Source: Pseudomonadota bacterium (lineage in GTDB: Bacteria; Pseudomonadota; Alphaproteobacteria; Acetobacterales; Acetobacteraceae). Taken from it: DNA of 64,000 nt. The DNA lies in the NCBI GenBank assembly GCA_021808545.1, contig JAKBBM010000001.1, positions 21,330-85,329 on the forward strand, read 5' to 3'. The position numbers and the translations under genes are program-made. The notes under the pieces are model-generated. The model was not told the origin of the DNA. It did not search any database and worked only from the letters and a program-made list of their open reading frames with translations. Position 1 is the stretch's first letter; each line of letters starts with the position of its first letter. Shown one piece after another: positions 20,174 through 42,536 of the stretch.

Positions 20174-20259
20174 GGCTGTCCGTCCCGCCGCCGGATGGCG
20201 TCTTGCCGGGCCTGCCGCAAAATTCTAACGTTTTTTATAAACGTCTGACGGATTGGGAC

Positions 20260-21024
20260 ATGCGGGGATATTGGCGGGCGGAGCCGGACCAGCAGGACGG
20301 GCTGGCGCTGGCCGTGCGGGGCTTGAGCAAATCCTTTGGCCGTCAAGTGGTCGAGGGGCTGGACCTTAGTGTGCGTCCTGGTGAGTTTTATGCTCTGCTT
20401 GGCCCCAACGGGGCCGGCAAAACCACCAGCCTGCGCATGATCGCCGGGCTGATGCGCCCGGATGAGGGGCGGATCAGCGTGTTTGGGCATGATGTGCTGG
20501 CCAACCCTTTGGCCGCCAAATTGATTATGGCCTGGGTGCCCGACGAGCCTTTGCTGTATGACCGTTTGAGCCCGTTGGAATATCTGGCCTTCATTGCCGG
20601 ATTGTGGCGGATGCAGGCCCGCGCTGCCGAGGCCCGCGCTGCCGAATTGTTGGAAATTTTGGGGTTATGGCCGCATCGGCATGAGCGTTGCGAGGGGTTT
20701 TCCCGCGGGATGAAGCAAAAAACCGTGTTGGCCGGCGCTTTGCTGCATAATCCGCGGCTGCTGCTGCTCGATGAACCGCTCACCGGGCTGGATGCCGCCG
20801 CCGCGCGCCAGGTGAAGACGCTGCTGCAGGCCCATGTGGAAACCGGCGCGGCGATTATTCTGACGACCCATATTCTCGAGGTTGCCGAGCGGCTGGCGAC
20901 ACGTATAGGTATTCTCTCCGGTGGCGCGTTGCTGGCCGAGGATGATCTGGCGGGCCTGCGCGCCCGGGTTGGGTTTGTCGCCGGCTCGCTCGAGGATGTG
21001 TTTTTGCACCTGACAGCGCCTTAA
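20260..21024 (+). CDS. ABC transporter ATP-binding protein (exporter type)
   Basis: Walker A GPNGAGKT, FSRGMKQK signature, LLLLDEP, TTH. Confidence 0.93.
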   Translation: MRGYWRAEPDQQDGLALAVRGLSKSFGRQVVEGLDLSVRPGEFYALLGPNGAGKTTSLRMIAGLMRPDEGRISVFGHDVLANPLAAKLIMAWVPDEPLLYDRLSPLEYLAFIAGLWRMQARAAEARAAELLEILGLWPHRHERCEGFSRGMKQKTVLAGALLHNPRLLLLDEPLTGLDAAAARQVKTLLQAHVETGAAIILTTHILEVAERLATRIGILSGGALLAEDDLAGLRARVGFVAGSLEDVFLHLTAP

Positions 21025-22469
21025 TGTTGTTCGCGCCTGCAAGCTTTCCTTGGTTGCTGCGTCATGAGCTGCGTTTGCTGTGGCGTGGCTCGGTGCTGCT
21101 GCGCACGCGCCGCGCGGTGCTGGTGCCGGTGGCACTGGTGGGCGGCTTGTTCCAGCTCGTAGCCCTGCTGCTCGCGGGGCAGATCCTGCATCATCCGCTG
21201 GCCCCAGCCCAGATGCTGCTGGCGGCCAATATCAATGTCGTGTTTTTGGCGGCGCTGATGTTTTCGCGCGCGATCACGGCGAGCATCGACGTGCTTTACG
21301 CCCGTGGCGATGTGGATTTTCTGCTGGCCTCGCCCTTGCCGCCCGGGCGGGTGTTGGCGGTGCGTATATTGGGGGTGGCTTTTAGCATTGCCGCGCCCTG
21401 GCTGCTGCTGGGCGGGGTGCTGGCCAACGCGTTGGCCATGCGCGGGCAAGGATGGGCGCTGGCCATCTACCCCATGGTGCTGGCCGAGGCGCTGGTGGTT
21501 GCGGCCATTGCCTTTGCCGTCACGGTGGCGCTGCTGATGCGGATCAGCCCGCAGGCGGCGCGCCGGGTGGGGCATGGGCTGGCGCTGGCGGTCGGTGTTG
21601 GCATTTTCATCCTTGGCCAGGCGCCGCGTTTTGTTTCCGCCCCGCATTTGGCCGCGTTCTGGGCCGCCATGTTGCCGGGGCCGCATGGCGGCGGACTGGC
21701 GTTTTTGTTCGCACGCGGCTTGTTGGGGCAGGGGGGGGCGCTCATTGCCAGCCTTGGGGTCGCGCTGGCTGTGTTTGGCGCCATCTGGGGCGGGCTTGCC
21801 AAGTCTTTTGCTGAAGGCGCCATCAGCGCCGCCGCGGCGCGCCCGCGTGGACGTGTCCGTGGCCAGGGGGGCACGTTCCGGGCCAGCGCCCTGGCTGCGC
21901 TGTGCGGGCGGGATATGCGTTTGCTGTTGCGGTTTCCTGGTTTGGTCTCGCAGGTTGCTTACCGTTCGCTTGCCCTGGTGCCGGTGCTTATGATTTTGGC
22001 CGGGAAATTTCGGACTGGCGATGGCTTTGTCGTGGCTGTGCCGCTGCTGGTATTCTTGGGCGGGCAATTGGCGTTGTTTTTCGTATCGGTTTTATCGGGC
22101 AGCGATACGGCGCCAGATCTTGCCGCCAGCGCCCCGGTTACGGCGGCGCTCATCCGCCGTGCCCGTATCGCCACCGCCGCCTATGCCACGGTGCTGGTAC
22201 TGGCCGTGCCGCTGCTGGGCGTACTGGCGCGCGCGCCCGCCTTGCTGGAGCCGCTGCTGCTGGGGCTGGCCGGGGTGATGTTGTGTAACCTGATCTTGGG
22301 GTTGCGCCTGCCCATGCCGCTGACACGCGCGGCATTTGGTAAGGTGCAGCACGGCACATTGCTGGGGTTGGTTCTGGGGCTTGCGGTCAGCAGTTTTTGG
22401 GCGTTCATCATCTGGCTGATGGTAGCACCCGACCCGCTGATCTGGCTGCGCCCGGCCGCGGGCGGCTGA
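21024..22469 (+). CDS. Putative ABC exporter permease (multi-TM)
   Basis: Highly hydrophobic; LLRHELRLLWR, D.DFLLASPLP; TAATG coupling to the ATPase gene. Confidence 0.8.
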   Translation: MLFAPASFPWLLRHELRLLWRGSVLLRTRRAVLVPVALVGGLFQLVALLLAGQILHHPLAPAQMLLAANINVVFLAALMFSRAITASIDVLYARGDVDFLLASPLPPGRVLAVRILGVAFSIAAPWLLLGGVLANALAMRGQGWALAIYPMVLAEALVVAAIAFAVTVALLMRISPQAARRVGHGLALAVGVGIFILGQAPRFVSAPHLAAFWAAMLPGPHGGGLAFLFARGLLGQGGALIASLGVALAVFGAIWGGLAKSFAEGAISAAAARPRGRVRGQGGTFRASALAALCGRDMRLLLRFPGLVSQVAYRSLALVPVLMILAGKFRTGDGFVVAVPLLVFLGGQLALFFVSVLSGSDTAPDLAASAPVTAALIRRARIATAAYATVLVLAVPLLGVLARAPALLEPLLLGLAGVMLCNLILGLRLPMPLTRAAFGKVQHGTLLGLVLGLAVSSFWAFIIWLMVAPDPLIWLRPAAGG

Positions 22470-23377: not shown

Positions 23378-25066
23378 ATGAGCAGGCAAACGAAGCCGTG
23401 GATCAAGGCGGAACAGAAGCTTGGGTTCCGCGCGGCAAGGCTACCTGTGGCGCTGGGCGCTGTGCAGGTGGTGTTCGGGATTGTGCAGGCGGGGTGTGCT
23501 GCGCGGCTATTGGCCGCGGTGCTGCACCTGGCGCGCGGCGGCGGAACGGCGCTGCTCTACGGTGTTTTATTCGCTGCCGCGGCTCTGGCCCGCGCCTATA
23601 CGCAAATGCAGGCGGAGCGCCAGAATTTTGAGCTGGGGGCTGCGGCGCGGCGGCGGTTGCGCGGCAATGTGCTGAGCGTGCTGCTGGCGCTGGGGCCGGC
23701 TGGCTTGCGCGGGCGCCATTCGGCCGATCTCGCCGCCACGGCGGTGGACCGGGTGGAGGCGATGGATGGGTTTCATGCCCGCTGGATCCCGGCAACACAG
23801 ATGGCGCTGATTGGCCCGGCCCTGGTTGGGCTTGTGGCACTCTTGGTGGATTGGCGCAGCGGGCTGATCTTGCTGGTGGCGGGCATGTTCGTGCCGTTTG
23901 CCATGGCGGTGGCTGGCATTGGCGCGGGCGTTGCGGCCAAGCGGCAATTTGTCGCCATGACCCGGCTGCAAGTCCGCTTTCTGGACCGTATTCGTGGTAT
24001 TTCCACCATTGTTCTGGCGGGCCGTGCGGCCGATGAAGCGCGCGCCCTGGGTGCGGCCGCGAAGGAATTGCGCGAGCGCACCATGCGGGTGCTGCGCGTG
24101 GCGTTTTTGTCTTCCACCGCGCTCGATCTTGCCGCCGCCGCCGCCCTTATCTTCATTGTTTTGCGCTTTGTGCCGGTGATGCATGGCGCGCTGGGCCTAG
24201 CGCCGGTGGCGCTGTTCATGGTGTTGCTGGTGCCGGAATTCTTTGCCCCCTTGCGCGGATTTGCCGTCGTGTATGGCGATCGTATGGCGGTGGAGGCCGT
24301 GGCCGACGAATTCTCTGCCCTGCCGCCAGCGCCAGAGGATGTGCCACCGGCCGATATTCGCGCCGTGGCCGCGCATGGCGTGACACTGGCGTTCGAGAAT
24401 GTCGGTTTTGCCTGGGATGAGACACGCGCGCCCGTGCTGCGGGATCTGTCTTTTAAGGTCGGGCGCGGCGAGATCTTGCTGCTGACCGGCGCCTCGGGGG
24501 CGGGAAAATCCACCATCATGGACCTCATTTTGGGCTTCATCGCGCCGCAGGATGGGCGGGTGACGATTAACGGTGCCGCGTTGGAAACCTTGGTGCCGGC
24601 GGCGCGCACCCGTATGCTGGGCTGGATCGGTCAGAAACCGGTGATTTTCGCGGGCTCGATCGAGGAGAATATCCGTTTTGCCCGTCCCTCCGCCAGCGAG
24701 GAGGAGCTGTGGGATGCGGTGCGCCATGCGCACCTGGAAGAGCTGGTCAACACCCTGCCGCAAGGGTTGAAAACGCCGCTGGGTGAGGGTGGGTTTGGCT
24801 TGTCTGGCGGTCAGGCGCAGCGCGTCGCCATTGCCCGCGCCTTCCTGAAGGACGCGCCGCTATTGCTGCTCGATGAGCCGACCGCGCATCTCGACCCCGC
24901 GGTGGAGCGCGATGTGCTGGAAAGCCTGAAGCATCTGGCCGCCGGGCGTACCGTGGTGCTGGCCACCCATTCCACCATGGCCATGGATTTTGCCAAGAGT
25001 GCGGGGGCGCGGCGGGTGGATTTGGATGCGTTGCGTTATGCCAGCTGGCGGAGTGTACCGGTATGA
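23378..25066 (+). CDS. cydD: Thiol reductant ABC exporter subunit CydD
   Basis: RMRVLRVAFLSS-like TMRVLRVAFLSSTALD, PEFFAPLR, GASGAGKST, LSGGQAQRVAIARAFLKDAPLLLLDEPTAHLD. Confidence 0.9.
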   Translation: MSRQTKPWIKAEQKLGFRAARLPVALGAVQVVFGIVQAGCAARLLAAVLHLARGGGTALLYGVLFAAAALARAYTQMQAERQNFELGAAARRRLRGNVLSVLLALGPAGLRGRHSADLAATAVDRVEAMDGFHARWIPATQMALIGPALVGLVALLVDWRSGLILLVAGMFVPFAMAVAGIGAGVAAKRQFVAMTRLQVRFLDRIRGISTIVLAGRAADEARALGAAAKELRERTMRVLRVAFLSSTALDLAAAAALIFIVLRFVPVMHGALGLAPVALFMVLLVPEFFAPLRGFAVVYGDRMAVEAVADEFSALPPAPEDVPPADIRAVAAHGVTLAFENVGFAWDETRAPVLRDLSFKVGRGEILLLTGASGAGKSTIMDLILGFIAPQDGRVTINGAALETLVPAARTRMLGWIGQKPVIFAGSIEENIRFARPSASEEELWDAVRHAHLEELVNTLPQGLKTPLGEGGFGLSGGQAQRVAIARAFLKDAPLLLLDEPTAHLDPAVERDVLESLKHLAAGRTVVLATHSTMAMDFAKSAGARRVDLDALRYASWRSVPV

Positions 25067-26691
25067 ACCCGATGATCCGTATTGTCTCCTTGTGGCTGCG
25101 CGAGGCGGGCTGGTTGCTGCTGGCCCTGCTGCTTGCATTGTCCGCCCTGGTGGCCGGTGTGGCGCTGATGGGCCTGTCTGGCCATTATCTAGCGCTTTCG
25201 CTGCTTGGCATCGCCGCTGCCGTGCCGGCCCTGCTGCCCTTTACCGGCACGGCGCGGGTGGTGCTGCGCTATCTGGAACGGGTGATGTCACACGAGGCGA
25301 TTTTCCGCGCCCTGGCCGATTTGCGGGTCTGGCTGTTCCGGGGGCTGGCCGCCAGTGCCGCCGGGGGGCTTGGCTTCCGCCGCGCGGGCGATGCGCTGGC
25401 CCGGCTGGTGAATGATGTGGACGTGCTGGATGGCGTGTTCCTGCGCGTGTTCGTGCCGCTGCTGGGGGGCGTGTTGCTGTTGCCCATTCTGGCCTGGGTT
25501 CTGGCGCGTGAATCCCTCCCCGCCTTGCTGGTATTGCTGCCGTTCCTGGCCGTGGCGTTCATCCTGCCTTGGCGGGCGGCCCGTGCCGCCCGGGCCAACG
25601 CCGCGCGCGCCGGGCTTGCCATGGCCAGCCTGCGCTCGGCCTCGCTCGATGCGTTGCATGGGCTGCGCGAGGTCAAGATCTTCGCCGCCGAAGGGCGGAT
25701 GCTGGCCGAGGTGCAGGCGCGCGAGGCAGACCTGCTGGCCGCGCAGCGCGATCTGGTCTGGCGGGGCAGCGCGCTCAATGCCTGGGCGTTTATTCTGGCG
25801 CAGGGCGGCATATTGCTCGCCATCGGGTGCGGGTTTTTTGGCGCGCCGGTGGCCGCCATCGTTGCCGTGCTGGTGCTGGTGACATCGTTTGAGACCGTGC
25901 TGGGCCTGCCGCGCGCGGGGCTGCTTTATGGCCAGTCCGCCGCCGCCGCCCAGCGTGTTGTGCGCGCGGCCGAGGCCGGGCCGCCAGTGCCCGATCCAGC
26001 CAAGCCCGCCGCCATGCCGGCGCGTAATAATATTGTCTTCGAGCATGTGGCCTTCCGCTATGCCGAGGACCGGCCCTTTGTGTTTGAGAATCTCTCCCTG
26101 CAATTGCCCGAAGGCTCGCGCACGGCGATTCTTGGGCCGTCGGGGGCGGGTAAATCCACCATCGCGGCCTTGCTGCTCAAGCTCATCGCCCCGGTGCGCG
26201 GCCAGATTCGCCTGGGTGGGGTGGATATTTCCACTCTGCCGGCCGAGGCGTTGCGCCATCGCATCGCCTATCTGGGTCAGACCACGCATCTGTTCGCCGA
26301 TACGATCCGCAACAACCTGCTGCTGGGCGACCCGGCGGCGGATGAGGCACGGCTCTGGGCGGCGCTGGAGGCAGCCCAGGTGGCCGATGTGGTGCGTGCT
26401 CTGCCCGAGGGGCTGGATTCTTGGTTGGGCGAAGGCGGGGCGACATTGTCCGGCGGGCAGGGGCGGCGCTTGGCGCTGGCCCGCACGCTGCTGATGGATG
26501 CGCCGATCCTGCTGCTGGACGAGCCCTGCGCCGGGCTGGATGCGGCAACCGAGATGGAGTTCTTCCGCGTGCTGAACAGCGCCACGGAAGGGCGGACCGT
26601 GTTGCTGATTTTGCACCGGCTGACCGGGGTTGAGCAGCTCGACCGTATCTGGCGCTTAACCGGCGGCGCGCTGGTGGCGGCGGCGGGGTAA
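25063..26691 (+). CDS. cydC: Thiol reductant ABC exporter subunit CydC
   Basis: RVVLRYLERVMSHEAIFRALADLRVWLF, RLVNDVDVLD, GPSGAGKST, LSGGQGRRLALAR.LL; ATGA overlap with cydD. Confidence 0.9.
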   Translation: MNPMIRIVSLWLREAGWLLLALLLALSALVAGVALMGLSGHYLALSLLGIAAAVPALLPFTGTARVVLRYLERVMSHEAIFRALADLRVWLFRGLAASAAGGLGFRRAGDALARLVNDVDVLDGVFLRVFVPLLGGVLLLPILAWVLARESLPALLVLLPFLAVAFILPWRAARAARANAARAGLAMASLRSASLDALHGLREVKIFAAEGRMLAEVQAREADLLAAQRDLVWRGSALNAWAFILAQGGILLAIGCGFFGAPVAAIVAVLVLVTSFETVLGLPRAGLLYGQSAAAAQRVVRAAEAGPPVPDPAKPAAMPARNNIVFEHVAFRYAEDRPFVFENLSLQLPEGSRTAILGPSGAGKSTIAALLLKLIAPVRGQIRLGGVDISTLPAEALRHRIAYLGQTTHLFADTIRNNLLLGDPAADEARLWAALEAAQVADVVRALPEGLDSWLGEGGATLSGGQGRRLALARTLLMDAPILLLDEPCAGLDAATEMEFFRVLNSATEGRTVLLILHRLTGVEQLDRIWRLTGGALVAAAG

Positions 26692-26693
26692 GC

Positions 26694-27353
26694 TCAACGC
26701 ACGACGAACTGACCGAACATGCCTTTTTCGGCATGTTCGGGCGTGGGGCAGACATACCAGTACGTGCCCGGCGTGCTGGCGGTGAAGCTCTGGCCCAGGG
26801 CAGCGTAATGGGCGGCTTGCGCATTCTTTTCGCTGCGCCAGGGAAGTTCCGGCATGGGAGGGACCATGGGTGGGCCCAGATACATCATCGTCATATAGGG
26901 ATAAGGCGGCGGCACGGTCACGATTTCCACCGTGTGGTCCATTTTGTCGCCATAATCCATGTTGAGCAGGTTAAGTTGGATTATTGCGCCCTGGGGCACG
27001 ATGATGGTGGGGTTAACCAGCCCGTGCAGCTCGAATGTCTGGTCATCGAACCCGGGCTGCACGGCGACGAGATTAATGATGATATGATGGCCCGTGAAGG
27101 TGACGCTGTTTGCCTTGGTGTCCGCCGCCCCGTGCGCGTTGCCATAGGCGATATAGGCCAGCGCCGCGGTGTGGTTTAGAATCCGTCCGCCCCAGCCGGG
27201 GGTTACGGGCCGGTTTTGCGCGCCAGCCCCCATCATGCCGCCACCGCCCATCATGCCAGGGCCCATCCAGCCGCCCCGGGCTGGTTGTGCCGCGGCGGCC
27301 GGGCCCATGGCCAGAAAGGCGGACATGGCCATGAGCAACGCCTTTGTCGACAT
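26694..27353 (-). CDS. Rusticyanin-like type-1 blue copper protein (cupredoxin), secreted
   Basis: ATG at 27353 after GAAGGAG; signal peptide; AVQPGF..QTFELHGLVNPTIIVPQGA; ligand set DH...GTYWYVCPTPEHAEKGMFGQFVV. Confidence 0.85.
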   Translation of the reverse strand: MSTKALLMAMSAFLAMGPAAAAQPARGGWMGPGMMGGGGMMGAGAQNRPVTPGWGGRILNHTAALAYIAYGNAHGAADTKANSVTFTGHHIIINLVAVQPGFDDQTFELHGLVNPTIIVPQGAIIQLNLLNMDYGDKMDHTVEIVTVPPPYPYMTMMYLGPPMVPPMPELPWRSEKNAQAAHYAALGQSFTASTPGTYWYVCPTPEHAEKGMFGQFVVR

Positions 27354-27448
27354 GAAATCTCCTTCGTTTAAGCCGTGGCAAACCAAGCAAATATGGGGGA
27401 GGGTGGCATTGAGCGAGATCATGCCAATGCTCAGTGCTTTGTTTTTTT

Positions 27449-28079: not shown

Positions 28080-29548
28080 CATGGGCGGGGTGGGGCTTGC
28101 AAATCCGTGCCGATCAGGGTCGGGATTACGAGCAGCAGCTTGTTGCCGGTGCTCACAGTCAGCGCTGGGCCGGGCCGCAAGGATTTGAAATAGGGCGTGT
28201 ATTTGGCGCGAATTTTGGAAATATCGCCAGGCATGGCGGTGAGCAGCACGGTCTTGCCAATGAACGCGACGGGCGGGGCGGTGATGCCAAATTCATGCGC
28301 GTTGCCGCCGAACACGGTGACCGGAATATGGTCGCCATCGCGCAGCAGCCCATAACCGATTTTGCCGGCATCAAACCAGCGCAGCGTGGCAATGGCCTGC
28401 ACGTGCGGCGGGATTTGGCGGGCAAGGCCCGTCCAGTCCACCGCCTGCAGCACGGGCGATTTGCCGGGTGGCGAGAGCCGGGCAAAGCGCCCAGCCAGGC
28501 CAGATGAGACCGTGACCGCCATGAACAAGGCGGCCAGGGCGAGCAAGGTGGCCGAGGCTGCCGCCACGAGGTTGCGCGGGCGCGGGGCGATGCGCGTGGC
28601 CCAATCCCCCAACAGCGGAAAAAGCATGAGATAGCCCGGCATCGCCCAATGGTAGAGAATACGGGTGGAGGACCACAGCCCGACCACGGAAAACAGGACG
28701 ACGGGAATGATGGCGCTTGTGCCCAGCAGCCAGCCGCGCCGTTCGGCAGGGCCGCCTGCCAGCGCGCCGGCCAGCAGCCAGACCATGGGTGCGAAGATCC
28801 AGGGCAGGAGGTAGAGCGCTTCGCCGCCCCAGATGCTCAGCGGCATCAAGGGGCGTAGATGCAGGCCCGCAGCACGGTCGCCCTGATAGGCGAACGAGAC
28901 CCAGTGATGCGCCGCGTTCCAGGCCAGAACGGGGGTAAACAGTACACAGGCCAGAAGCACCGCAAGCCACGGGCCAGGGCGGCGCAATTCCCGCCGGCCC
29001 ACCGGGTCGGCCAGCACGCCAAGGGCGGCACCCAGCAGCACCAGCCCGGCATTATATTTGGAGAGCAGCGCCAGCCCGCCAAACAGCCCCACCGCCAGCC
29101 ACCAGCGCGGGGCGGGTTTAGCCTCGGGCAGACCCAGCGCGCGGATGATGGCGTAAAGAAAGGCGAGCAGGGCGGTGTTCAGCGGCCCGTCGGGCAATAC
29201 CCAGCAGCCGAAAGCCAGTGAGAAGACGGGCGAGATGCTGTACGCCACCACCGCCCAGAACCCGGCTTTTTCGCCATAAAGCCGCTTGGTGATGAGATAG
29301 AGCAGCCAGGAGGATACGCCCGAGAGGACCACGAAAGGCAGGCGGACCATAATGGGTGCCGCCGTGCCGGTGAGGGCCCGCATGGCCAGCTCCAGCCACC
29401 AGGAGGCGAGCGGATGGTCGAAATAAGACGCGGCGAAATGGTTTGAGGCCGCGACCATGTAGCTTTCATCTATGCCAAGCCCGGTAAAGCCGGCGAGGAT
29501 AAGCCGCAGGGCGATGGCGGCGATGACAACCCAGGTTGCTGCGTTCAT
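28079..29548 (-). CDS. Glycosyltransferase family 39/83 (ArnT/PMT-like, GT-C)
   Basis: GLGIDESYM, SYFDHPPLASW-like YFDHPLASW, VRLPFV, LPDGPL, LLSKYNA, P..AWNAAHHWVSF.YQ. Start 29548. Confidence 0.85.
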   Translation of the reverse strand: MNAATWVVIAAIALRLILAGFTGLGIDESYMVAASNHFAASYFDHPLASWWLELAMRALTGTAAPIMVRLPFVVLSGVSSWLLYLITKRLYGEKAGFWAVVAYSISPVFSLAFGCWVLPDGPLNTALLAFLYAIIRALGLPEAKPAPRWWLAVGLFGGLALLSKYNAGLVLLGAALGVLADPVGRRELRRPGPWLAVLLACVLFTPVLAWNAAHHWVSFAYQGDRAAGLHLRPLMPLSIWGGEALYLLPWIFAPMVWLLAGALAGGPAERRGWLLGTSAIIPVVLFSVVGLWSSTRILYHWAMPGYLMLFPLLGDWATRIAPRPRNLVAAASATLLALAALFMAVTVSSGLAGRFARLSPPGKSPVLQAVDWTGLARQIPPHVQAIATLRWFDAGKIGYGLLRDGDHIPVTVFGGNAHEFGITAPPVAFIGKTVLLTAMPGDISKIRAKYTPYFKSLRPGPALTVSTGNKLLLVIPTLIGTDLQAPPRP

Positions 29549-29579: not shown

Positions 29580-30287
29580 TCAAGAGCCTGAGAACCAGTT
29601 ATAGCCCTGATCCGCCCAATAACCGCCGGGATAAATATTGGTGACGGCCAGTTGCACAATGGATTTGGGGTTTTTGAAGCCGAGTTTGGTGGGAATACGC
29701 AGCCGCACCGGCGCGCCAAAGGGCGGGGTAAGCGGTGCGCCCAGAAAATCGAGGGCGAGGATGGTTTGCGGGTGCAGGGCGGAGGGCATGTCGATGGAGG
29801 TGTAATACCCATCGGCGCAGCGAAAGGAGACATAGCGGCAGCGCAGATCCGCGCCGATATGTTTTAAGAACAGCCCCAGCCGCACACCGCTCCATTGGCC
29901 GATAACCCGCCAGCCCTCGACGCAGATGAAGCGCGTGATCTGGCTTTTCTGCGGCAGGGCGCGCAATTGCGCGAGGCTCCAGGGGGTTTTGTCCTGGATC
30001 TGCCCGCCCAGCGCCAGCCTGTAGGTGGCTTCGTCCACCACCGGGGCTTGCGAGGCCGGGTAGAAAGCGTTGAAGCGCGGCGGGCGGGTGATCTGGTCTG
30101 GCCGGAAGGTGGGGGCAAGCGTGTTGGGGTCGAACAGGGCCGCCTGCACCCGGTCGTTCCAGGTGGACATGGCGTGCAGGAACCGGTCTGCCAGGTCGGG
30201 ATGCTCTGGATCGTCGAAATTGCAGCCGGCAAGGTCGGGCAGAAGCCCAAAGGCGGCGGCGCGCAGGAGCAGGGCGCGGCGGTTCAT
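29580..30287 (-). CDS. Molybdopterin-dependent oxidoreductase (sulfite oxidase/MsrP-like), Tat lipoprotein
   Basis: MNRRALL...LAGC leader; RFICVEGW Mo-Cys; ALHPQTILA, GAPVRLRIPTKLGFKNPK, GGYW.DQGY.WF. Confidence 0.9.
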   Translation of the reverse strand: MNRRALLLRAAAFGLLPDLAGCNFDDPEHPDLADRFLHAMSTWNDRVQAALFDPNTLAPTFRPDQITRPPRFNAFYPASQAPVVDEATYRLALGGQIQDKTPWSLAQLRALPQKSQITRFICVEGWRVIGQWSGVRLGLFLKHIGADLRCRYVSFRCADGYYTSIDMPSALHPQTILALDFLGAPLTPPFGAPVRLRIPTKLGFKNPKSIVQLAVTNIYPGGYWADQGYNWFSGS

Positions 30288-30880
30288 GGCAGGCGCCCGC
30301 CCGTGATCATGGGTGGCAATACTTTGGGCACCAATGCCACCAGGATGAGATGCACGGCGATGAACAGGGCAATTGCGCTCATCGCGAAAAAATGCACATA
30401 GCGCGCCACCACATAGCCGCCGAACAGATCGCAGAGCGGCCAGAGCTGCACCGGCTTCCAGATGGCGAGGCCCGAGAGCACGATGACCACCCCCGCCGCC
30501 AGAACGCCGAGATAAAGCAGCTTCTGCACCGCGTTATAGACCCCTTTTTCGTGACGCAGCCGCAAGGTGAGGGCGGCGATAAGGTCGCGCCCGACATCGC
30601 CCGGGCGGAGCGGCAGAAATTTGCGGTAATGGCCGCTGGTAAGGCTCCAGATCACATAAAGCAGGCCGTTGGCGACCAAAAACCACATCGCCGCCAGATG
30701 CCAGGCAATCGCCCCCCCCAGCCATTGGCCGATTGTGTAGGGAAAGACAAAGCCAAAGAGCGGCGAGGCATTATAAATCTGCCAGCCGCTGCCGATCATG
30801 ATGATGATGGCCACGGCGTTGAACCAATGCATCAGCCGCAAGGGCAAAGGGTGGATTGGTTTGGCCTGTTTGGGGGGCAT
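30284..30880 (-). CDS. Cytochrome b/b6-domain membrane partner of the Mo-oxidoreductase
   Basis: IHPLPLRLMHW, AWHLAAMW, YNAVQKLLY, ARYVHF, VHLILV; ATGA overlap. Confidence 0.88.
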   Translation of the reverse strand: MPPKQAKPIHPLPLRLMHWFNAVAIIIMIGSGWQIYNASPLFGFVFPYTIGQWLGGAIAWHLAAMWFLVANGLLYVIWSLTSGHYRKFLPLRPGDVGRDLIAALTLRLRHEKGVYNAVQKLLYLGVLAAGVVIVLSGLAIWKPVQLWPLCDLFGGYVVARYVHFFAMSAIALFIAVHLILVALVPKVLPPMITGGRLP

Positions 30881-41393: not shown

Positions 41394-42350
41394 TCACCCC
41401 GCGCCGATGAGCACGCCCGTGGCGAAGACGAGCGCACCGCCAAGGGCAACCTGCAGGGTCGCGCGCAGGGGCGAAGTATCCATATAGCGCCAGCGGATCC
41501 AGGAGATTATGCCCAGCTCCACGGCCACCACGCAGAAGGCGACGATGAGCGCCATGCGCAGGTTGGGGATAAGGAAGGGTAATGTATGGCCAAGCCCGCC
41601 CAGCGTGGTCATCAGCCCGGTCACGATGCCGCGTATATAAGGCGTGCCGCGCCCGGTCAGGCTGCCATCGTCCGACAGGGCCTCGGCGAAACCCATGGAA
41701 ATACCCGCCCCCAGCGACGCGGCGGCGCCGACCAGAAAGGCGTCGAACGGCCGGCCGGTGGAAAAGGCGGCGGCGAAAATCGGCGCCAGGGTCGAGACCG
41801 AGCCATCCATGAGCCCCACCAGCCCGGGCTGGATATATTGCAGCATGAACAGGCGCTCAGCATGCTTGTCTTCGTGCAGGCGGATATCGGCGGTCAGGTT
41901 TTTGCTCGAGAGTTCATCCGCGCGGACCTCGTGCTCTTGCTCGGCCTCGGCCAGATCGCCGAGTAATTTGCGGATCGATACATCCGTGGTGCGCGAAGCG
42001 GCCAGGCGGTAAAACCGCTTGGTCTCGGTCTCCATGCTTTCGGCGAGATTGCGCACTTCCTCAATGCTGGGCGAAGGCAATTGCCAGACCGGCTTACGCT
42101 TCAGAAAGCCGCGTACATCCTGGCGGCGGATCAAGGGAATGTGATCGCCGAATTTCTCGCGATACAAATCGAGCAGGCGGCGGCGATGATCGCCCTCTTC
42201 TTGCGCCATTTCGGTAAAGATCTGCGCGGAGGCGGGAAATTCCTCACGCAGACGCTCGGCCAGATCGTTGTAGATGCGGCCATCCTCTTCCTCGGCGCCA
42301 ATGGCCAGGGCCAGAACTTCGCGCTCGGAGAGTTGAGAAAAATCGCGCAC
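41394..42350 (-). CDS. mbfA: Iron exporter MbfA (rubrerythrin-like ferritin domain + VIT1/CCC1 membrane domain)
   Basis: [65 protein letters not shown] start 42350 preferred; alternative ATG 42380. Confidence 0.9.
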
Positions 42351-42536
42351 TGTCAAAACTCCTTGGATTTCAGCAGCCATGTGGCGCGCGCAACCATTTT
42401 GGTCAAGCCGACTATATCTTTATAAGAATGATTTTCAAATGCATTTAGCGTGGCGCTTGCGGCGTTGCCGGCAAACGCAAAGATTGTATTATGCGTGAGA
42501 AAACCACTTTAAAATGCACCAGCAAGGGGGCTTGGA

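Follow-up and report, generated by a model that had tools for sequence, protein, structure and literature searches.

A rusticyanin-like cupredoxin with a methionine/glycine-rich arm from an Acidocella, and its likely part in periplasmic copper handling

Rusticyanin, the cupredoxin of Acidithiobacillus ferrooxidans (Rus; TIGR03095; PDB 1RCY, 2CAK), is encoded in the rus operon together with cyc2, cyc1 and cox. Sulfocyanin (SoxE, TIGR03094) and AcoP are also cupredoxins of acidophiles and lie in respiratory clusters, and both rusticyanin and AcoP have been implicated in copper tolerance (PMC5328820; PMC7463520). CopI, a periplasmic copper-tolerance cupredoxin of Rubrivivax gelatinosus and other bacteria, carries a flexible His/Met segment, to which a proposed model assigns the binding of Cu(I) and its transfer to the cupredoxin centre (PMC13308877). 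CueO, which has a role in periplasmic Cu(I) detoxification, holds its substrate copper with ligands that include M441 and D439 (PMC6155172, PMC12723717). Here we describe a gene for a rusticyanin-like cupredoxin in a 64-kb stretch of bacterial DNA (contig JAKBBM010000001.1, positions 21,330 to 85,329; hereafter the window). Its product probably captures Cu(I) in the periplasm and oxidises it or hands it on, in the manner of CopI, rather than serving iron respiration. The family of this protein most likely handles toxic periplasmic copper, because it travels with copper-efflux genes in many bacteria; for the window copy the role is extrapolated from these relatives.

The gene and the parts of its 219-residue product are as follows.

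26694..27353 (-): coding sequence of the 219-residue rusticyanin-like cupredoxin, with its stop codon at 26694-26696; from the list of open reading frames (ORFs), public gene call P0001, G+C content at third codon positions (GC3) and TIGR03095
27288..27353 (-): Sec-type signal peptide, residues 1-22, with predicted cleavage between AAA and Q; inferred from the n/h/c-region pattern of the sequence
27216..27287 (-): disordered Met/Gly arm, residues 23-46 (QPARGGWMGPGMMGGGGMMGAGAQ); residues 24-32 and 37-44 have predicted local distance difference test (pLDDT) scores under 50
26697..27215 (-): rusticyanin-fold cupredoxin core, residues 47-219; supported by Foldseek, by the family profile against the PDB and by pLDDT values that exceed 90 from residue ~50 on
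26934..26963 (-): N131-M-D-Y-G-D-K-M138-D-H140, the first His ligand with the Asn/Asp/Met cluster before it; family conservation
26880..26909 (-): P149-P-Y-P-Y-M-T-M156-M157-Y loop, the second Met cluster, with a short helix at 155-158; family conservation
26718..26750 (-): C202-x4-H207-x4-M212, the C-terminal type-1 (T1) copper ligand loop; motif match at 26712-26750, spacing as in rusticyanin C138-H143-M148

All the sequence elements listed by the original prediction are present, namely a signal peptide, the segment GGWMGPGMMGGGGMMG (residues 27-42), a rusticyanin-like core, the patch YMTMMY (residues 153-158) and the ligands H(T)...C-x4-H-x4-M. The ligand loop reads C202-PTPE-H207-AEKG-M212, and the first His ligand, H140, is followed by T141. 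In an AlphaFold2 model built on an alignment of 76 family members, residues ~50-219 are confident (pLDDT >90) and the arm (24-44) is disordered; the signal-peptide-like N-terminus, MSTKALLMAMSAFLAMGPAAAA followed by Q, has pLDDT <50, and confidence is locally lower in the helix at 155-158.

Rusticyanin is the closest known and solved relative of the window protein. TIGR03095, the rusticyanin equivalog of NCBI, matches residues 79-219 at E = 1.2e-26, and the solved rusticyanins of the PDB match at E ~1e-15. The first nine Foldseek matches are all rusticyanin (E ~2e-14, ~28% identity, 163-172 aligned columns), with target-normalised template-modelling scores of 0.82-0.91 for eight crystal structures and 0.75 for a nuclear magnetic resonance model; after these come auracyanin and further cupredoxin domains, at E 1e-7 or weaker. 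When the family profile was compared with the PDB, rusticyanin scored 97 bits and the runner-up, a nitrite-reductase cupredoxin domain, 44 bits. The two proteins have in common the fold with its N-terminal extension, the ligand set His...Cys-x4-His-x4-Met with its spacing and the periplasmic location, as well as a PPY motif, the C-terminal sequence HAxxGM[FY]GK[FI]VV and the lack of an Asn after the first His.

The window protein should not, however, be filed as a rusticyanin. Its TIGR03095 score of 93.6 bits falls short of the curated cutoff of 146.7; all 76 aligned family members match the model (best E-value 6e-34), and none comes near the cutoff. None of 236 collected proteins exceeds 40% identity to the rusticyanin of A. 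ferrooxidans, which stands in a distance tree on a long branch, about equally far from all family members. From the profile scores, the fold matches and the TIGR03095 score below cutoff, the window protein is therefore a specific relative of rusticyanin, N-terminal extension included, and not an equivalog. The sulfocyanin model TIGR03094 scores it at 18.9 bits against a cutoff of 168.4. Pfam gives sub-threshold matches only, to Cu-oxidase families and confined to the C-terminal ligand loop, and with a single domain of 219 residues the protein does not qualify as a multicopper oxidase (MCO), an enzyme made of several cupredoxin domains with HxH motifs.

Homology searching gave 93 relatives, with named hosts that include Acidocella, Acidiphilium, Tistlia, Dongiaceae, Jiella, Rhodopila, Thiomonas, Paraburkholderia, a plasmid of Burkholderia thailandensis and Acidihalobacter, and, at a greater distance, the archaeon Vulcanisaeta. 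When 1.84 billion representatives were searched with the profile, clusters being drawn at 50% identity, the family came to 891 clusters at E <= 1e-3 and at 83 at E <= 1e-30. Database labels for its members range over "rusticyanin", "sulfocyanin-like copper-binding protein" and "hypothetical". Judged by its sequence, the window protein belongs to a distinct sister family of rusticyanin, whose defining motifs (signal peptide, arm, Met/Asp cluster, PPY loop, LPWRS and ligand loop) it has in full, and whose invariant residues it keeps without exception.

Residue conservation was counted across the 76 aligned members. A22, at the predicted cleavage site, is at least 90% conserved. The arm of the family consists of 39% Gly, 17% Met, 0.4% His and 0.3% Cys, with almost no Lys or acidic residues; it has repeats of the GPGMMGG type, and it is not a product of chance, because MMG or GMM motifs occur in the arms of 75 of the 76 homologues. 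A Met/Gly-rich arm had thus been rightly seen in the window protein, though it is no peculiarity of the lineage, as was first supposed, but a family hallmark that rusticyanin lacks. The first His is preceded in the family by N131-M132-D133-[YF]-G-x-x-M138-x-H140, with N131, D133, M138 and H140 invariant (76/76) and M132 kept in 75/76, whereas rusticyanin reads N-T-N-K-G-F-G-H. In the following loop, P149, P150 and Y151 are at least 96% conserved and are joined by M154 (64/76), M156 (73/76) and M157 (71/76), so that the family's PPYxxMxMM stands against the PPYAVMPVI of rusticyanin. A further motif, L-P-W-R-S, is found in the window protein and is absent from rusticyanin. The C-terminal ligands are nearly as constant as the first His (C 74/76, H 74/76, M 75/76). 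The cluster methionines are kept as Met in 71-76 of the 76 members, with little exchange for Leu, Ile or Val, a strictness that fits metal ligands better than residues that serve in packing. Across the wider superfamily, the arm is found in 144 of 208 full-length members, Met-x-His in 149 and the MM after PPY in 144.

It is the genomic neighbourhoods of the family that point to copper. A scan of a genome collection with the single protein found two loci only, and a scan of metagenomes contributed a further 79. The non-redundant loci of 5 kb or more, 40 in number, entered a census with reference neighbour proteins as tblastn queries. At least one copper-island marker (Cu-ATPase, CsoR, MCO, YHS, DUF302 or CusRS) is present in 29 of the 40, a core copper marker (Cu-type ATPase, CsoR, MCO, YHS or CusS) in 21, and a gene for a SHOCT membrane protein in 18. 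Around relatives that are at least 50% identical to the window protein, a marker was found in 10 of 12 loci; by our own estimate, the chance of such a marker within 12-16 kb of a genome with a few such genes is about 1%. The two genes closest to the cupredoxin on either side (145 ORFs from crude gene calling, 40 loci) were also tallied by Pfam family without prior selection, and the list was headed by P-type ATPase domains, SHOCT, DUF302, YHS and HMBD, and no cytochrome c or haem-copper oxidase family was among the 25 commonest neighbour families. Members in copper-efflux or resistance islands come from Alpha-, Beta- and Gammaproteobacteria as well as from more distant lineages. Representative neighbourhoods are as follows.

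Acidocella aminolytica: DUF302, YHS/HMBD P-type ATPase, CsoR, MCO, SHOCT
Tistlia: YHS, DUF5676, DUF3141, P-type ATPase, SHOCT, CDF, DsbD
Thiomonas: CusRS, SHOCT, DsbA, HMBD ATPase, DUF302, YHS
B. thailandensis plasmid: SHOCT, YHS, MCO, NfeD, P-type ATPases
P0083, a distant member (41% identical): csoR-copA(HMA)-glutaredoxin-SHOCT-cupredoxin, the cupredoxin start overlapping the SHOCT stop
L001, an Acidocella metagenome-assembled genome (MAG) with the closest relative: ATPase and LTXXQ upstream, SHOCT downstream

This setting differs from the rus operon and from the respiratory clusters of sulfocyanin and AcoP, and it bears on the first rival explanation, in which the protein would be a rusticyanin-type respiratory carrier between a Cyc2-like outer-membrane cytochrome and the inner-membrane chain, in Fe(II) oxidation or Fe(III) reduction. 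Such a carrier was one of the two functions originally offered, the other being a Cu(I)-handling cupredoxin. In its favour, no other solved protein comes nearly as close as rusticyanin, whose ligand spacing is identical, the T1 site is nearly invariant, and no Asn follows the first His; Cyc2 and Cyc1 homologues have been reported elsewhere in Acidocella and Acidiphilium genomes (PMC10654088), and one family member comes from the iron oxidiser Acidihalobacter ferrooxydans. We nevertheless regard an iron carrier as quite unlikely. Besides the equivalog cutoff that all 76 members miss and the long separate branch of rusticyanin, to which identity is only about 28-40%, there is the lack of cytochrome c and oxidase genes among the common neighbours. 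As had been predicted, Cyc2, Cyc1 and a rus operon are likewise missing from the window, in which no CxxCH within a credible ORF, no c-type cytochrome and no oxidase gene was found. Many hosts, such as Paraburkholderia, Tistlia and Jiella, are not known as iron oxidisers, and in a sequence similarity network study the true Rus proteins grouped with Acidiferrobacter, Acidihalobacter and Bacillales alone (PMC10654088). On the sequence evidence, then, the Cu(I)-handling alternative is better supported than the iron-redox one, with the copper islands and a CopD fusion (described below) on its side.

An argument from the residue after the first His had to be given up. The Ser found there in rusticyanin (Ser86), in place of Asn, had been invoked as a feature linked to high potential and acid stability, but the window protein has Thr141, and the 76 members have Gly (53), Thr (16), Ala (4), Ser (2) or Asn (1). 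Because the family varies at this position and mostly has Gly, the residue says little about potential or acid stability. Sulfocyanin has Thr there as well (PMC10654088).

The Met/Gly character extends to other proteins of the copper islands. The small SHOCT proteins beside the cupredoxins begin with a Met/Gly tail (MMWYGQPGGWGYGMMGG...), after which come a transmembrane segment and, at the C-terminus, the SHOCT domain, and in one locus (L015) the SHOCT stop overlaps the cupredoxin start. Their tails and their recurrence beside the cupredoxin suggest a copper-related role for SHOCT proteins of this class. Periplasmic LTXXQ proteins (CpxP/Spy/ZraP-like) lie directly upstream of the cupredoxin in two loci, and that of Thiomonas carries GPGMMGG repeats. 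Since it is common to cupredoxin, SHOCT and LTXXQ proteins, the Met/Gly module occurs on at least three protein types in copper islands.

L010:6888-7151, L013:7661-7909, L005:14203-14487, L015:7759-8004 and L001:8830-9258: SHOCT proteins with a Met/Gly tail
L010:7461-7877 (Thiomonas) and L001:7004-7816 (Acidocella MAG): LTXXQ periplasmic proteins directly upstream of the cupredoxin

The family also shows changes of architecture. In one member (P0176) the arm has grown to ~150 residues rich in Met, Asn and Gln; in another (P0108) the cupredoxin domain is duplicated in tandem, with Ser/Thr-rich linkers. A third (P0100, 533 residues; L095:6001-7602) has a CopD membrane domain (PF05425, E = 2.5e-17) at its N-terminus and a cupredoxin domain of the family at its C-terminus, and this fusion was found on two independent contigs, directly downstream of copC. 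The fusion invites a second rival explanation, a copper chaperone for uptake or cuproenzyme maturation, which would be a CopC-like partner of CopD-type importers without a part in detoxification; the solo site of the window gene in housekeeping DNA would fit such a constitutive supply. We think this very unlikely, as most neighbourhoods are efflux or resistance modules (CsoR-controlled CopA, CusRS, MCO) and the fusion was seen in just one lineage. CopC copper sites, moreover, are not known to be Cys-containing T1 sites.

Under the copper-handling reading that we prefer, the thioether-only arm and the Met cluster would capture periplasmic Cu(I), by a mode of binding that should be independent of pH and would suit an acidophile, and would place it beside the T1 centre. 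The centre would then oxidise Cu(I) to the less toxic Cu(II), or else hold the copper and pass it on. By analogy, this scheme resembles both the CopI model and the substrate-copper site of CueO.

CopI and the window protein each consist of a single cupredoxin domain with a His-Cys-His-Met site, flexible disordered segments that bind metal (in the window protein, by prediction) and an internal conserved segment containing Met, and the family shares with CopI an association with copper tolerance; the capture-then-oxidise mechanism that we propose for the family has been put forward for CopI as well (PMC13308877). The two differ in descent as far as profile and PDB searches indicate, these having brought up rusticyanin and then sulfocyanin and nitrite-reductase domains and no relationship to CopI, which itself was not aligned. 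They differ also in chemistry: the family arm is of Met and Gly with 0.4% His, and its internal segment is Met-rich without His. The CopI site is of the green type-1.5. AcoP, too, is absent among the PDB matches listed for the window protein and the family profile.

With CueO the likeness is more local. A check of the CueO numbering places M441 at -2 and D439 at -4 from the T1 ligand His443 (M441-L-H443), which is matched by M138-D-H140 in the window protein; both have an Asp nearby and a Met-rich flexible element. The family's invariant Asp is at -7 (D133) whereas that of CueO is at -4, where Asp or Asn is found in 46 of 76 members, the comparison being one of sequence positions only. CueO draws a second Met/Asp pair from its Met-rich insert, and the ligands lie within about 7-8 Å of T1. 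CueO and other laccase-type cuprous oxidases possess a trinuclear cluster, whereas the window protein, as a single cupredoxin domain, has none and is thus unable to reduce O2 alone.

A bolder form of the copper reading would make the family a self-contained, single-domain cuprous-oxidase module, in which the Met/Asp cluster is a substrate-Cu(I) site wired to T1 in the CueO manner. The Met/Gly arm and the Met/Gly tails of the SHOCT and LTXXQ proteins would form a thioether relay for Cu(I) from the adjacent P1B ATPase, and rusticyanin would be an offshoot of an ancestral copper-detoxification cupredoxin that has lost the Met features. Taken jointly, these propositions are doubtful.

A third rival explanation has the protein as a general periplasmic electron-transfer cupredoxin for some other partner, an MCO or a cytochrome, with the Met cluster as a docking patch and the arm as a flexible tether or spacer. 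The conserved redox-type T1 site is in keeping with this, as are MCO genes in 8 loci and a cytochrome c gene that adjoins the Paraburkholderia copy. In azurin, Met44 at -2 of the first His is part of a hydrophobic docking patch. We hold this explanation to be unlikely. An arm with 17% Met is unlike generic linkers, and in one lineage it has expanded to the ~150 Met-rich residues mentioned above; the GPGMMGG motif recurs in the adjoining SHOCT and LTXXQ proteins of copper islands. The near-absence of exchange at the cluster methionines is atypical of a purely hydrophobic patch, and the CopD fusion indicates metal trafficking.

Several observations weigh against our preferred reading of the window protein as a Cu(I)-handling cupredoxin. 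The fully conserved redox-type T1 site points to electron transfer, and catalysis by a one-electron protein needs an acceptor. Because azurin also has a Met at -2, the Met cluster could serve to dock a partner instead of binding metal. Copper markers are missing from about a quarter of the longer loci, and the literature searched yielded no experimental study of any family member. The window copy itself lies outside a copper island, the location of 29 of the 40 family loci: no copper marker, SHOCT gene or P1B ATPase was found within the 64 kb, and the gene lies among cydDC, an ibpA-like hsp20 and genes for a glycosyltransferase and for a Mo-oxidoreductase/cytochrome b pair. Its nearest relatives, island-borne Acidocella copies, are only 66-72% identical to it, whereas the window enolase is 91-93% identical to those of named Acidocella species. 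With an identity so far below that of housekeeping genes, it looks like a diverged solo paralogue or xenologue, and it may have diverged in function as well. Mine-drainage metatranscriptomes from the same study gave no contigs on the cupredoxin gene and are uninformative on its expression; they hold only short fragments of ~90% identity, on the conserved hsp20 of related organisms.

A cluster at 90% identity (that of P0036) spans Thiomonas, Pandoraea and Acidiphilium, and because these belong to different proteobacterial classes, the island with its cupredoxin gene has probably moved horizontally in recent times. Plasmids do not seem to be a major reservoir in the plasmid collection searched, since it returned a single match, on the B. 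thailandensis plasmid.

The findings matter in several ways, more at the level of the family, with its SHOCT and LTXXQ partners, its CopD fusion and its possible link to the origin of rusticyanin, than at that of the orphan window copy. With automated "rusticyanin" labels, iron oxidation is easily inferred in error for acid mine drainage, soil and sediment metagenomes, an error that the association of the family with copper-efflux islands corrects. The family would represent a second lineage of copper-tolerance cupredoxins, unrelated to CopI, with thioether-only Met/Gly capture elements that should function at a pH low enough to protonate His-based sites. SHOCT, a widespread domain, has no assigned function, and the Met/Gly-tailed SHOCT proteins gain a functional context that can be tested. 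A plausible evolutionary origin is also offered for rusticyanin.

As regards the gene itself, the open frame on the minus strand spans 26694-27422, and translation from the ATG at 27353 gives the 219-residue product, identical to public gene call P0001. Its GC3 of 0.75 is usual for coding DNA in this genome (window ~63% GC). One flanking signal was read from the sequence.

27359..27364 (-): Shine-Dalgarno sequence AAGGAG, with a 5-nucleotide spacer to the ATG at 27353

The ATG at 27353 is the true start, on account of this strong Shine-Dalgarno sequence, the identical public gene call and the N-termini of homologues, and on the same three lines of evidence we rejected the longer ORF from the ATG at 27422. 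The in-frame extension upstream of the ATG at 27353 contains CLVCH (27375-27389, minus strand), which is thereby placed in the untranslated leader and would pass for a haem c-binding motif in a mistaken annotation of the longer ORF. In the 241-bp divergent region between the cupredoxin gene and hsp20, one sigma-70-like site was found, oriented toward hsp20; inverted repeats and above-threshold Rfam matches were both absent.

The source organism is, by its enolase, an Acidocella, and the window DNA occurs in mine-drainage metagenomes, which agrees with the heterotrophic acidophile that had been predicted. The window consists of housekeeping DNA (cysNC, enolase, IMPDH, panC, ValRS, MbfA and others). 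Within it the cupredoxin gene is divergent from the ibpA-like hsp20 and convergent with cydDC. The genes cydD and cydC (23378-26691, plus strand), for a thiol-reductant ABC exporter, both score above their NCBIfam cutoffs, have no adjacent cydAB and end 3 nucleotides from the cupredoxin stop codon. We rejected this adjacency as a functional link, as the genes are convergent and the arrangement was not seen in other family loci.

Some further features of the window were recorded. A SorX-like Rfam match inside the glycosyltransferase ORF (28474-28541, minus strand; 20.3 bits against a gathering score of 46.6, E = 0.11) is most likely due to chance. At 29580-30880 (minus strand), 2.2 kb from the cupredoxin gene, the gene for a 235-residue molybdopterin oxidoreductase with a lipoprotein-like LAGC signal overlaps that for a cytochrome b561-type membrane protein; the oxidoreductase bears a weak likeness to MsrP (75.9 bits, where the cutoff is 207), and it is a matter of speculation that the pair repairs oxidised periplasmic methionines. 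A 481-residue ORF with good coding statistics (21024-22469, plus strand) has no Pfam or NCBIfam match. It overlaps at its start with the end of an ABC ATPase gene (stop codon included; 20203-21024), of which it is probably an uncharacterised permease partner. An MbfA-type iron exporter, a rubrerythrin-VIT fusion, is encoded at 41394-42380 (minus strand; 499 bits against a cutoff of 450) and fits an organism of iron-rich acid water.

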